DNA of 64,000 nt from Octopus vulgaris (lineage: Eukaryota): positions 17,608,001-17,672,000 of the forward strand of contig OX597839.1 in assembly GCA_951406725.2 (NCBI GenBank), in the 5' to 3' direction. Both the position numbers and the translations under genes were made by a program. A model generated the notes under the pieces. It searched no databases and was not told the origin of the DNA. It was given only the letters and a program-made list of their open reading frames with translations. Of the stretch, positions 2,233 to 49,170 are shown one piece after another; within the stretch, counting starts at the first letter, position 1, and every line of letters starts with the position of its first letter.

Positions 2233-2484
2233 GGGAAATGATTTCTATTATCATTGCATATGCAGATTTAGGGTTTGTTATTTTAATGACAGTTCACATT
2301 TTGAACTTAGATAAAAATAACCAAAAACAAGGAAGAGAAAATAAATGCGGTAAAAGAAATAATTAGCTAAAAAAAAAAATGCATAAAAAATCTTAAATTA
2401 AATAGAAATCACTGGTTCTTATCTCATTGATTATGGAAATTCAATCTTTTTAGGTAACAGTTAAGATTCACTTTCATGTATAAG

Positions 2485-2642
2485 CACAGGCATAGCTGTG
2501 TGGATAAGAAATTTGCTTTAGAACCATATGGTTTTGAGTTCAGTCCTAGTGTACAGCACCTTGAGCAAGTGTCTCCTACTATAGCCCCAGACCCACCAAT
2601 GTGTTGTGAATTTGATAGACAGAAACTGGGTGAAAGCCTTTC

Positions 2643-2645
<3 letters not shown>
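2485..2645 (+). mobile_element. SINE family A, decayed 5' half
   Basis: caggcatagctgtgtgg...gttcagtcc...gcaagtgtct...gatagacagaaactg matches the better copy at 42165-42578. Confidence 0.75.
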
Positions 2646-2700
<55 letters not shown>

Positions 2701-3879
2701 CATCATCATCATCGCTTAACATGCTAGCATAGGTTGGATGATTTGACTGAGGACTGGCGAACCAGATGGCTTCACAAGGCTCCAATCTTAATTTGGCAGT
2801 GTTTCTACAGCTGGATGCCCTTCCACACACCAACCACTCCGTGAGTGTAGTGGGTGCTTTTACATGCCACCAACACGAGAGCCAGTCAGGTGGGACTGGC
2901 AACGGCTACACTCAAATGGTGTTTTTTTATGTGCCACCTGCACAGGAGCCAGTCCAGTGGCATTGGCAACAACCTCACTCAAAAGTTTTCAGGTGCCACC
3001 GGCACAAGTGCCAGTAAGGCAACACTCAAATGGTGCTTTTTACGTGCCACTGGCATGAAAGCCAGTTAGCCACTCAGGCAATGATCACACTCAGATGGTG
3101 CTCTTAGCGCTCCACTAGCATGGATGCCAGTCATTGAATTTGATTTCGATTTCACTTGCCTCAACAGGTCTTCGTAAGCAGAGTTTAGTGTCCAATGAAG
3201 GAAAGGTACGCATAAGTGGGCTGGTTACACCCCTGAAATAGGTCATGAGGTTATGGTCTCATTTGGCTTGCTGGGTCTTCTCAAGCACAGCATATTTCCA
3301 AAAGTCTCTGTCACTAAACATTGCCTCGGTGAGACCTAATGTTTGAAGCTCGTGTTTCACCACTTCATCCCAGGTCTTCCTGGGTCTACCTCTTCCACAG
3401 GTTCCCTCAACCGCTAGGGTGTGGCACTTTTTCACACAGCTATCTTCATCCATTCTCACCACATGACCATACCAGCGCAGTTGTCTCTCTTGCACACTAC
3501 ATCTGATGCTTCTTAGGTCCAGCTTTTCTCTCAAGGTACTTACACTCTGTCGAGTATGAACAGTGACATTATACATCCATCGGATCACAATGGCTTCATT
3601 CCTTGTGAGCTTACACATATCCTCAGCAATCACGGCCCATGTTTCACTGCCATGTAGCATGGCTGTTCGTACACATGCATCATACAGTCTACCTTTTACT
3701 CTGAGCAAGAAGCCCTTTGTCACCAGCAGAGGTAAGAGCTCTCTGAACTTTGCCCAGGTTATTCTTATTCTAGCAGCTATACTTTCAGTGCACCCTCCCC
3801 CGCTACTGACGTGGTCACCTAGGTAACGGAAGCTATCAACTACTTCTAGTTTTTCTCCCTGGAATGTGGCAGAAGTTGT

Positions 3880-3880
<1 letters not shown>
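2701..3880 (-). mobile_element. 5'-truncated RTE-clade LINE: RT C-terminus (open frame 3259-3880), 3' UTR and (GAT)n tail
   Basis: The translation EKLEVVDSFRYLG...ARIRITWAKFRELLPLL...KGRLYDACVRTAMLHGSETW...RQLRWYGHVVRM...GRGRPRKTW has the typical RTE RT C-terminal motifs. The UTR ends in catcatcatc at 2701 and recurs many times in the window. Confidence 0.92.
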
Positions 3881-3950
<70 letters not shown>

Positions 3951-3952
<2 letters not shown>

Positions 3953-4172
3953 TTGTGTCTGGGGAGAGTCACTCTCTTCTGACGCCCTACAACTCAACAC
4001 ACTCACCAGTAAAACTTCTACCTATTTCTCCCCTATTCCTCCAAAATTCCTACTGCATCCTGCAACATTTTCAATAGTTTTGAGAGTCAAAACAATTGAA
4101 AAGGTTGCAAGACGCAACAAAAACTTTAGAAACATAAAAAAGAAATAAGTGGAAACTCCACCGGTGAGCGTG
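3951..4172. mobile_element. Fold-back (palindromic) element next to a (TA)n tract, with strongly biased arm mismatches
   Basis: Arms 3998-4083 and 4087-4172 align without gaps around a GAG loop (61/86 identical). The right arm stops exactly where the minisatellite begins. Confidence 0.85.
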
Positions 4173-4983
4173 AACAAGAGTTCCAGTTGGTCTGGTCATA
4201 ACAAGGGTTTCAGTTGATCTGATCATAACAAGAGTTCCATGTTGATCTGATCATAATAAAGGTTCCAGTTGGTCTGGTCAAGACAAGGGTTCCAGTTGGT
4301 CTGGTCAAGACAAGGGTTCCATTTAGTCTGGTCAAGACAAGGGTTCCATTTGGTCTGGTCAAGACAAGGGTTCCATTTGGTCTGGTCAAAACAAAGGTTC
4401 CTGTTGATCTGATCATAACAATGGCTCCAGTTGATCTGATCATAACAATGGCTCCAGTTGATCTGATCATGACAAGGGTTCCAGTTGATCTGATCATGAC
4501 AAGGGTTCCAGTTGATCTGATCATGACTAGGGTTCCAGTTGATCTGATCATGACAAGGGTTCCAGTTGATCTGATCATGACTAGGGTTCCAGTTGATCTG
4601 ATCATAACAATGGCTCCAGTTGATCTGATCATAACAAGGGTTCCAGTTGACCTGATCACAACAATGGCTCCAGTTGATCTGATCATAACAATGGCTCCAG
4701 TTGATCTGATCATGACAAGGGTTCCAGTTGATCTGATCATGACTAGGGTTCCAGTTGATCTGATCATAACAATGGCTCCAGTTGATCTGATCATGACAAG
4801 GGTTCCAGTTAACCTGACCACAACAATGGCTCCAGTTGATCTGATCATGACAAGGGTTTCAGTTGATCTGACCACAACAATGGCTCCAGTTGATCTGATC
4901 ATGACAAGGGTTCCAGTTAACCTGACCACAGCAATGGCTCCAGTTGATCTGACCATGACAAGGATTCCAGTTGATCCAATCAA
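4173..4983. repeat. 27-bp minisatellite, about 30 copies (consensus GACAAGGGTTCCAGTTGATCTGATCAT)
   Basis: Direct tandem repetition, visible as the 9-aa period (MTRVPVDLI) in ORFs 4210-4983 and 4421-5002. Confidence 0.97.
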
Positions 4984-5242
4984 CAGAACAGGCTGCTTGT
5001 GATATTAAAATAAAAGTGGTTAAGCGCTCCACAGACGTGCATATCCTTCATGTAGTTCTTAAAGAGACTCAGTATGACACTGAATGTGACAAGGCTGGCC
5101 TTTTGAATTTTACATACAACTCACTTTTGCCAGCTGAGCAGACTGGAGCAATGTGAAATAAAGTGTCTTGTTCAAGAACACAACTTGCCATCAGGAATCA
5201 GGATCATGAGTTAAATACTCTAACCACTGAAACATGCACCTT
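4957..5242 (-). mobile_element. SINE family C (tRNA-derived head); its 3' part runs into the minisatellite
   Basis: Colinear with 48863-49170 (-) and 46214-46531 (+). The head reads ggtgcatgtttcagtggttagag on the minus strand (A-box-like). Confidence 0.85.
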
Positions 5243-43609: not shown

Positions 43610-43611
<2 letters not shown>

Positions 43612-44096
43612 TTTCTTTATTTGGCATTTCCTATATACTTGTGTATAATCCTAGTCACCAAAAGGGACCTTTTATAGAGATCCCAAATGTTAGGTATGTG
43701 GGAAGTGGGAAACGAAGTCCTGGTTTTACCCTGTATCCCAATTATAATCATTATTCTTATCATTAAATATAGGTACAGGTGTGCTCTTGGGTCCAGTATC
43801 ACTGTGCAGCACTTTGGCAGGTGTCTTCTGCTATAGCTTCAGGTTGACTAATGCCTTCTAAGTGGATTTGGTAGATGGAAACTGAAAGAAGCCCATTGTA
43901 TATGTATATATATCATCATCATATATATATATTTAATGATAAAAATAATGATCATAATCGAGATAAAGGGTAAAAGCAGGACTTGGTTTCCCACTTCCCA
44001 CATAACTAACATGTGTGATCTCTGTAAAAGGTCCCTTTTGGTGATTAGGATTATACACAAGGAAATGCCAAATAGGAAATGCCAAATAAAGAAAAT
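43610..44096. mobile_element. MITE-like inverted repeat (arms 43610-43771 and 43928-44096) with a SINE A fragment at its centre (about 43772-43900)
   Basis: The arms are roughly 90% reverse-complementary (e.g. aaaagggaccttttatagaga vs tctctgtaaaaggtccctttt). The right arm has a short duplication of aggaaatgccaaat. Confidence 0.9.
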
Positions 44097-46213: not shown

Positions 46214-46531
46214 AGACACAAGGCTTAGAGGTTAGGGCATTCAACTCGCAGCCGTAAGGTTGTAAGTTCAGTTCCTAACAACATGTTGTGTCCTTCAGCA
46301 AGACACTTTATTTCACATTGCTCCAGTCCACTCAGTTGGCAAAAATGAGTAGTTCCTGTATTTCAAAGAGCCAGCCTTGTCATACTCTGTGTCAAGCTGA
46401 ATCTCCCTGAGAACAACATTATGGGTACATGTGTCTGTGGTGTGCTCAGCCACTTGCATGCTAATTTCATGAGCAAGCTGTTCTGTTGCTCAATCAGCTG
46501 GGACCCTTGTCATTGTAACCGATGGAGTGCT
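46214..46531 (+). mobile_element. SINE family C
   Basis: tRNA-like head plus a body ending ggacccttgtcattgtaaccgatggagtgc. It is the reverse complement of 48863-49170. Confidence 0.85.
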
Positions 46532-48862: not shown

Positions 48863-49170
48863 GGCACTTCGTCAGTTACATGACGAGGGTTCCAGTTGAT
48901 CCGATCAGCGGAACAGCCTGCTCGTGAAATTAACATGCAAGTGGCTGAGCACTCCACAGACATGCATACTCTTAATGTAGCTTTAAGGGAGATTCAGCAT
49001 GACCCAGAATGTGACAAGGCTGACCTTTTCAATTACAAGTACTACTCATCTTTGGCAGCTGAATGGACTGGATCAATGTTAAATAAAGTATCTTGCTCAA
49101 ATGCACAATGTGCCACTAGGAATCCAACTCATGACCTTATGACCATGAGCCAAATAGCTTAACCACTAAG
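48863..49170 (-). mobile_element. SINE family C
   Basis: Contains a single copy of gacgagggttccagttgatccgatca, the unit amplified at 4173-4983. Confidence 0.88.

Follow-up and report, generated by a model that had tools for sequence, protein, structure and literature searches.

A hairpin-bearing composite repeat of Octopus vulgaris whose shared T-to-C changes probably descend from ADAR-edited RNA

How do the two arms of a genomic hairpin come to differ from each other almost entirely in one direction? The question is raised by a stretch of 64,000 nt of the Octopus vulgaris genome (contig OX597839.1, positions 17,608,001 to 17,672,000; hereafter the window), in which two arms at 3998-4083 and 4087-4172 can be aligned gap-free along 86 bp and differ at 25 positions (13 C:A, 8 A:C, 1 T:G, and 3 of other types). 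A single polarity is seen in 21 of the 22 transition mismatches (binomial p = 1.1e-5). These figures had been put forward in a reading made from the sequence alone (the sequence-only reading), and both the alignment and the tally proved exact on recount. The hairpin at 43610-44096 had been named there as an unbiased comparison, and its transition polarity is indeed 6 versus 4 over 176 aligned pairs. The explanation developed here, which we regard as likely, is that ADAR edited a minus-strand transcript of the hairpin, which was then reverse-transcribed into the germline, amplified, and edited again.

The hairpin and its parent repeat

The left arm belongs to a unit at 3945-4083 on the minus strand, an inverted partial copy of a Penelope-like terminal repeat, and the right arm (4087-4172) lies on the plus strand. 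The predicted fold of 3951-4180 has an energy of -108.5 kcal/mol on the minus strand and -68.8 kcal/mol on the plus strand. The assembled bases agree with genomic DNA, as short-read contigs from two other DNA studies, independent of the assembly, are identical to it without any difference over 3989-4111 (run X2) and 3993-4097 (run X4); an assembly error is therefore unlikely over these intervals. No contig covering 4112-4172 exactly was present among the matches listed. The right arm of the window copy stops at 4172, and its sister copies extend for about 53 nt more and end in a 56-nt unpaired tail. The control hairpin at 43610-44096 consists of inverted arms of about 165 nt around a central dispersed repeat, without mismatch polarity, and no further copy of its arms was present among the loci compared.

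A whole-genome search (2.8 Gb) with the hairpin returned 79 matches at about 40 loci, which form two groups. The parent group is abundant, with 1254 exact matches of one 35-mer in the genome. The edited group is rare, with 24 loci found (19 in the first search, then L050, L052, L091, L094, and L197); all 14 exact genome matches of a diagnostic 22-mer fall at edited loci already known, so the sample is near complete for that arm. The parent unit is 197 nt long, with one fixed end and an alternative end 56 nt earlier, often beside (TA)n, and it is accompanied by inverted partial copies of variable length, a head-to-head pair being present at 29 of the 42 parent-type loci. The sequence-only reading had considered that the repeat consensus might already carry the G:U pairs; in the parent consensus, which is an almost perfect palindrome, the changed sites are T. 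An ancestral hairpin model of 281 nt was computed from 20 parent arms.

The anatomy of the parent repeat matches that described for Penelope-like elements. At a single locus, L058, a GIY-YIG frame (PF01541, 29.3 bits against a cut-off of 22.6) precedes the unit by about 600 nt on the same strand. Inverted 5'-truncated copies and tails are known from Penelope-like elements in the parts of the literature drawn on here (PMC8557442; PMC11167929), and the features shared with those accounts are the inverted partial terminal repeats, the two alternative ends, the (TA)n neighbours, and the upstream GIY-YIG frame (L058). Unlike those elements, the hairpin studied here is a passenger in a composite, its tail measures 56 nt and not 30-40, and no canonical hammerhead is present among the Rfam matches listed. 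These (150 listed of 193) include no hammerhead ribozyme; the matches to the hairpin are generic hairpins and microsatellites, and every listed one is below the gathering score. The parent unit does possess a 5-bp stem followed by GAAA, with a core that is not that of a canonical hammerhead; in the window, the start of the parent unit (4087-4130) shows this stem and GAAA in a form resembling a degenerate hammerhead.

Further details were observed at L058, where positions 2233-3035 of the minus strand hold the frameshifted end of a Penelope-like ORF with cysteine motifs before the GIY-YIG core. This remnant is joined to the terminal repeat via a microsatellite-rich spacer that also occurs in L076 and L078, and a 174-aa frame upstream in L058 gave no Pfam match. 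A simple MITE was considered as the parent and excluded, given the asymmetric, variable ends of the repeat and the GIY-YIG frame that precedes it in L058.

The composite repeat that carries the hairpin

The edited hairpin is carried in a composite whose length is about 4-5 kb. Read along the plus strand, the composite consists in order of a (TCA)n tail, a LINE 3' part in minus orientation, a (TC)n(TA)n tract, and the hairpin, followed by a presumably mariner-like piece, a 200-nt fragment that we take to have terminal inverted repeats, a short dispersed repeat, and a Tc1-type transposase piece with a DDE_3 match. Next come a 48-bp tandem array and about 570 nt more. This array is nearly private to the composite family, with 36 exact genome matches.

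The copy in the window spans 2699-4172. Its left end (2699-3261, minus strand) comprises the (TCA)n tail and the LINE 3' untranslated part with internal repeats of 62-67 bp, including a 67-bp tandem at 2858-2983, and the same left end is clear in 11 composite copies and uncertain in two (L048 and L197). It is followed at 3262-3879 on the minus strand by an open frame of 206 codons, assigned to the C-terminal end of a LINE reverse-transcriptase ORF and, judging from its motifs, presumably of an RTE-like clade. This frame has no Pfam match, and its ESM Atlas neighbours, an 'Endonuclease-reverse transcriptase (Fragment)' (0.95) and a DUF6451 cluster (0.95), are weak and below the recognition threshold. 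The (TC)n(TA)n tract at 3880-3949 stands between the LINE piece and the hairpin in sister copies too. The window copy is broken inside the right arm against a 27-bp minisatellite of 29.7 copies (4173-4976), which abuts the break, marks the right boundary, and is not seen in sister copies; the rest of the composite was not found elsewhere within the 64-kb window. The sequence-only reading had the hairpin integrating alone beside a (TA)n tract, and in this it was mistaken: what was copied includes the (TC)n(TA)n tract together with 1.2 kb of LINE 3' end, and it begins on the left at about 2700.

Three composites (L145, L153, and L154) carry an unedited hairpin, and all three are without the LINE piece. 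In L153 (G000:C22:3939689), another subtype of the parent hairpin occupies exactly the composite junction of L145 and L154; an independent insertion or conversion could be responsible. Several other features of the family were recorded. The 27-bp minisatellite runs into a dispersed repeat (4954-5200) with more copies at 46282-46516 and 48879-49124, and it may be an expanded part of that repeat. The 48-bp array unit holds a 10-nt palindrome, and the array is partly inverted in several of the loci L032, L033, L044, L151, L198, L202, L204, and L238, while composite segments are out of order in L033, L156, and L204. Two near-identical array-bearing loci about 94 kb apart, L200 and L201 (G000:C11:34755923 and 34662062), are likely a local duplication or an assembly duplicate.

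Polarity, sequence context, and confinement of the changes

Compared with the ancestral model, the window copy has 25 T>C changes and no A>G change on the plus strand. Seven are located in 3945-3997 and 13 in the left arm at 3998-4083, making 20 in the left-arm unit, and five in the right arm (4124, 4156, 4158, 4159, and 4169), as anticipated by the sequence-only reading, which had predicted an excess of plus-strand T>C in both arms and in 3951-3997. That reading had also allowed that the changes might polarise as G>A; they polarise as T>C. The 21 polar mismatches between the arms divide into 18 T>C and 3 G>A, the latter at 4008 and 4057, both CpG, and at 4052, where the same G>A is found in 11 sister copies; the sequence-only reading had allowed that two or three sites could be CpG decay.

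The majority sequence of the edited subfamily shows T>C at 29 of 94 T sites (22 in the left arm and 7 in the right) and A>G at none of 95 A sites (p = 3.7e-9), a count that includes nine sites inside a homopolymer tract (positions 77-97) where gap placement can shift a site; a core set of 20 sites leaves these positions out, and four partial, masked rows (L017, L050, L052, and L094) were omitted from the counts. Each of the 18 copies spanning the left arm has 25-33 T>C versus 0-5 A>G. There are only six other subfamily-majority changes, four of which form two symmetric pairs predating the inversion, and opposed pairs changed on both sides are limited to these two symmetric variants. As controls, the skew between arms reached p < 0.01 in none of the 29 measurable parent-type hairpins and in all 19 measurable edited hairpins, no measurable arm pair being available at 13 of the 42 parent loci and at 2 of the 21 edited ones. 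The 56-nt unpaired tail, with 9 T sites, shows no T>C in any of 21 rows, and no cluster of plus-strand A>G was detected in any copy examined.

The 5' neighbour of the changed adenosine on the minus strand is also biased, as changes are found at 7 of 18 sites preceded by U, 20 of 44 preceded by A, 1 of 17 preceded by C, and 1 of 15 preceded by G (U/A versus C/G, p = 1.3e-4). The depletion of 5' G, another prediction of the sequence-only reading that was borne out, is 1/15 versus 28/79 (p = 0.03), and no preference was detected at the 3' neighbour (p = 0.35). Hyper-editing across animals shows G depleted upstream of the edited A, with a weaker downstream G preference in octopus, according to the portion of the survey drawn on here (PMC5625713), and the 5' neighbour bias of the fixed sites matches this upstream depletion.

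The T>C changes are confined to the hairpin plus one 200-nt fragment. Edited and unedited composites differ at 1 of 767 sites in three segments and at 11 of 820 sites of the Tc1 piece, where the differences are of mixed type. The LINE piece differs from other copies of its family at 11 of 698 sites (1 T>C and 3 A>G). Since the flanks are nearly unchanged against the unedited sister composites, the sequence comparison indicates that the hairpin changes were acquired as a burst and not by drift. This bears on the idea that selection for a paired minus-strand RNA hairpin gradually accumulated the changes, only those that make G:U pairs being tolerated. The predicted folds would suit such selection, the subfamily majority reaching -213 kcal/mol on the minus strand versus -151 on the plus strand from an ancestral model at -235 on both. 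A long branch would be needed, however, and the flanks changed at a single one of the 767 sites over the same branch; plus-strand G>A wobbles would be expected as well, and only three majority G>A (one symmetric and one at CpG) stand against the 29 T>C. Such selection predicts neither the 5' neighbour bias nor the presence of a second cluster in a fragment that lacks a stem of comparable length, and we therefore consider it very unlikely.

Inheritance from an edited founder and the route back into DNA

The sequence-only reading had proposed that a minus-strand fold-back transcript was hyper-edited and then reverse-transcribed. The core of this proposal stands, with the polarity, the presence of changes in both arms, and the neighbour bias in its favour; as an event of this particular copy it does not. 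Editing of the window copy itself is excluded because 24 of its 25 T>C changes are common to sister copies, which places the event in the founder of the subfamily. Core sites keep C in 365 of 386 calls, a retention near neutral decay that favours descent from a founder. The most likely interpretation is that at least 24 loci inherit changes made in ADAR-edited RNA, and that editing likely occurred more than once.

A different account of the sharing is that the source remained unedited and that many of its transcripts were edited separately at reproducible hot spots, each being retrocopied once, with common sites reflecting site preference. Several observations are compatible with it, such as a star-like tree, variable sites (e.g., 103, 202, and 229) that fit no single tree, T at core sites in 5.4% of calls versus a background of 2.9% (p = 0.009), the lack of three right-arm changes in L019, and the occurrence of second-cluster copies on both sides of a subclade marker. 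However, C is present in 67-100% of copies at about 20 sites, of which 12 have one exception or none, and this is close to what neutral decay of an already fixed C would leave. None of the loci found has an unedited hairpin attached to the LINE piece, the three unedited composites all being without LINE, and the 14 diagnostic 22-mer matches all lie at known loci. Separate editing is thus regarded as unlikely, and descent from an edited founder is preferred. The locus L019/L047 (G000:C2:212940361), in which the left-arm changes are present and three right-arm T>C found in 22 of 23 copies are absent, may have branched off early or may contain a patch of conversion. A tree built from the non-hairpin parts is star-like with low support and gives no order of rounds, second-cluster copies do not form a supported clade in it, and no source locus of the edited family was identified among the loci examined.

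A second cluster of changes is present in the 200-nt fragment in 6 of the 19 composites covering it. A heavy tier of 18-21 T>C is found in L031, L034, L042, and L197 and a light tier of 10-11 in L151 and L198, the light set being almost nested in the heavy one, and the other 13 composites have 0-3 T>C. The cluster comprises 20 T>C and no A>G, with a bias towards U/A over C/G at the 5' neighbour (p = 1.0e-4). The transposon family to which the fragment belongs has C at some of these sites, and gene conversion was therefore tested and excluded: the family majority is matched at 4 of 7 T-to-C versus 0 of 14 other non-CpG differences, in a sample of 11 family rows that is biased towards C because eight came from a search with the changed query. 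If the fragment paired with an inverted member of its family, the four family-matching sites would form A:C mismatches, which ADAR is known to favour. No inverted partner was found in the 10 loci searched. In the hairpin, extra changes are also indicated by 7 of 52 non-core T sites with C in at least three copies versus none of 87 A sites (p = 8e-4), or 5 of 50 when CpG-forming sites are left out (p = 0.006).

These data also weigh on whether the pattern could be an assembly error, C-to-T or G-to-A deamination read backwards (through CpG decay or APOBEC-like activity), or conversion from another subfamily. The three G>A among the 21 polar mismatches of the window copy would agree with deamination, and C at four or five second-cluster sites in the transposon family with conversion. 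Nevertheless, the pattern recurs at 24 dispersed loci and is matched by independent contigs, T is the base in the parent family, the opposite arm, and the three unedited composites, and the conversion test for the second cluster was negative, so this group of explanations is very improbable and largely excluded.

The succession of events proposed for the family begins with a Penelope-like insertion that left a near-perfect 281-nt inverted repeat beside transposon fragments and the 48-bp array, an arrangement whose unedited versions are still present in the genome. In the edited lineage, a LINE 3' end on the minus strand is present as well. The hairpin may then have folded in a minus-strand transcript, where ADAR would have converted about 30% of the adenosines, and a LINE or Penelope-type reverse transcriptase may have read inosine as G and inserted the copy. 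The edited copy would subsequently have spread, by a route that we infer, to the at least 24 loci where its changes are shared, the window copy being one that was cut in the right arm. Later transcripts were possibly edited again, at a few extra hairpin sites and, in six copies, in the 200-nt transposon fragment, which was probably paired with an inverted relative. Both the action of ADAR and reverse transcription at the hairpin are inferred from the pattern in the sequences. Four putative RNA runs (X15, X17, X18, and X22, with shares of 0.03-0.10), whose RNA nature is a guess, yielded unstranded contigs, mostly parent-family sequence near the loop, which carry no strand or editing signal.

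The carrier strand is the weak link of this scheme. The LINE ORF and tail lie on the minus strand, the one on which the A>G changes are found, and the tail forms the end of 11 copies; both would agree with a minus-strand template, in contrast to the left-truncation ladder. The LINE tail is missing from many copies, which are cut on the left with the tandem array kept, and some consist of the array only; such copies are also compatible with copying off the opposite strand, or with a different route. A common right end was found too in about five copies. No convincing target-site duplication was detected in 18 copies, the longest matches being microsatellite, and short duplications may be lost as copies are 3-9% from the consensus. 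There is no poly(A), and no convincing splice signals were found at the internal deletions of the 10 copies examined. The composite retroposons SVA and LAVA of primates are likewise non-autonomous assemblies of repeat fragments with a variable tandem array; unlike them, the octopus composite has no poly(A) and no target-site duplication found, both its ends are variable, and its parts are unrelated. In the account given in part of PMC11167929, Penelope-type enzymes initiate at internal positions of the template, are able in vitro to extend both strands, and prefer AT-rich targets, and these properties could account for the variable ends of the composite.

The truncation ladder, anchored at the tandem array, would fit plus-strand templates, and with them the possibility that adenines were deaminated in DNA, either in minus-strand cDNA within an RNA:DNA hybrid or in displaced, folded single-stranded DNA. 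A hybrid would span the whole cDNA, yet changes are found only in the hairpin and one fragment, and no enzyme of animals is known to hypermutate adenines within hairpins of DNA. ADARs do edit the DNA strand of hybrids in vitro, but the portion of the review considered here limits this to dA-C mismatches or mutant enzymes and gives it as unknown in retroviruses (PMC12925331). Deamination in DNA is accordingly judged to be quite unlikely, and editing of RNA before reverse transcription remains the preferred explanation.

Precedents for such editing come from other systems. In cultured human cells, clustered T>C in 3 of 235 L1-driven pseudogene insertions was read as A-to-I change before reverse transcription (PMC11702581, in part); as here, the clusters lie in inserted cDNA and only in inverted repeats, but those were single somatic events in an induced system, and the octopus changes are in an assembled genome, at 24 loci or more and from more than one round. 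ADAR hypermutation recorded by reverse transcriptase is described for avian retroviruses in the review section drawn on here (PMC12925331), where close to half of the adenosines of an inverted repeat or of U3 become G and the change is likewise recorded in DNA; these are infectious LTR viruses in culture, unlike the non-viral Penelope-like/LINE/DNA-transposon composite of an animal genome. Hyper-editing of RNA from palindromic repeats, those of frog Harbinger and of octopus among them, is reported in the portions cited (PMC5625713; PMC9068888), octopus being among the highest signals. The self-folding substrate and the G depletion upstream of the edited A are common to both, but theirs is described in RNA only and the present pattern is in DNA. 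The APOBEC 'DNA-edited' LTR retrotransposons of vertebrates similarly have one-directional clusters fixed during retrotransposition and polarised by an unedited source, although theirs are G-to-A through cDNA deamination, without a tie to dsRNA, and ADAR is not mentioned in the part of the paper considered (PMC4866542). An APOBEC DNA-edited element fails as an identity for the octopus family, since sense G-to-A would be expected and the changes polarise as T>C/A>G.

A literature search, covering mostly titles and abstract openings, found no published report of a germline-fixed, amplified, and repeatedly ADAR-edited retroposon family. What appears to be new is a germline-fixed edited subfamily at a minimum of 24 loci, with retroviruses and L1 insertions in cultured cells as precedents. 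The section of PMC7703385 considered here treats A-to-I changes as having no direct inheritance and attributes the substitution of G for A at edited positions to selection. A-to-I editing is normally treated as non-heritable; in this family, a single episode would have altered about 30% of the hairpin adenosines and left its mark at two dozen loci, and this implies that the germline was where both editing and reverse transcription took place. A mutational route from an edited A to a genomic G is thereby offered. Such editing would distort divergence-based dating of repeats, and it may be a way for inverted repeats to lose their perfect pairing. The composite family is a good test case, with unedited sisters, a symmetric internal control, and a second cluster all at hand. 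It seems to us an even question whether ADAR acts as a heritable, structure-directed mutator of retroposed sequence in this animal, a ratchet that adds a further layer of A-to-G changes whenever a sequence goes through an RNA stage; the reading of this family as a record of at least three layers (the founder hairpin and the light and heavy tiers of the second cluster) is equally balanced. If the ratchet is true, the copies would serve as a dated archive of the RNA structures formed in the germline, even of pairings whose partner was itself never copied.
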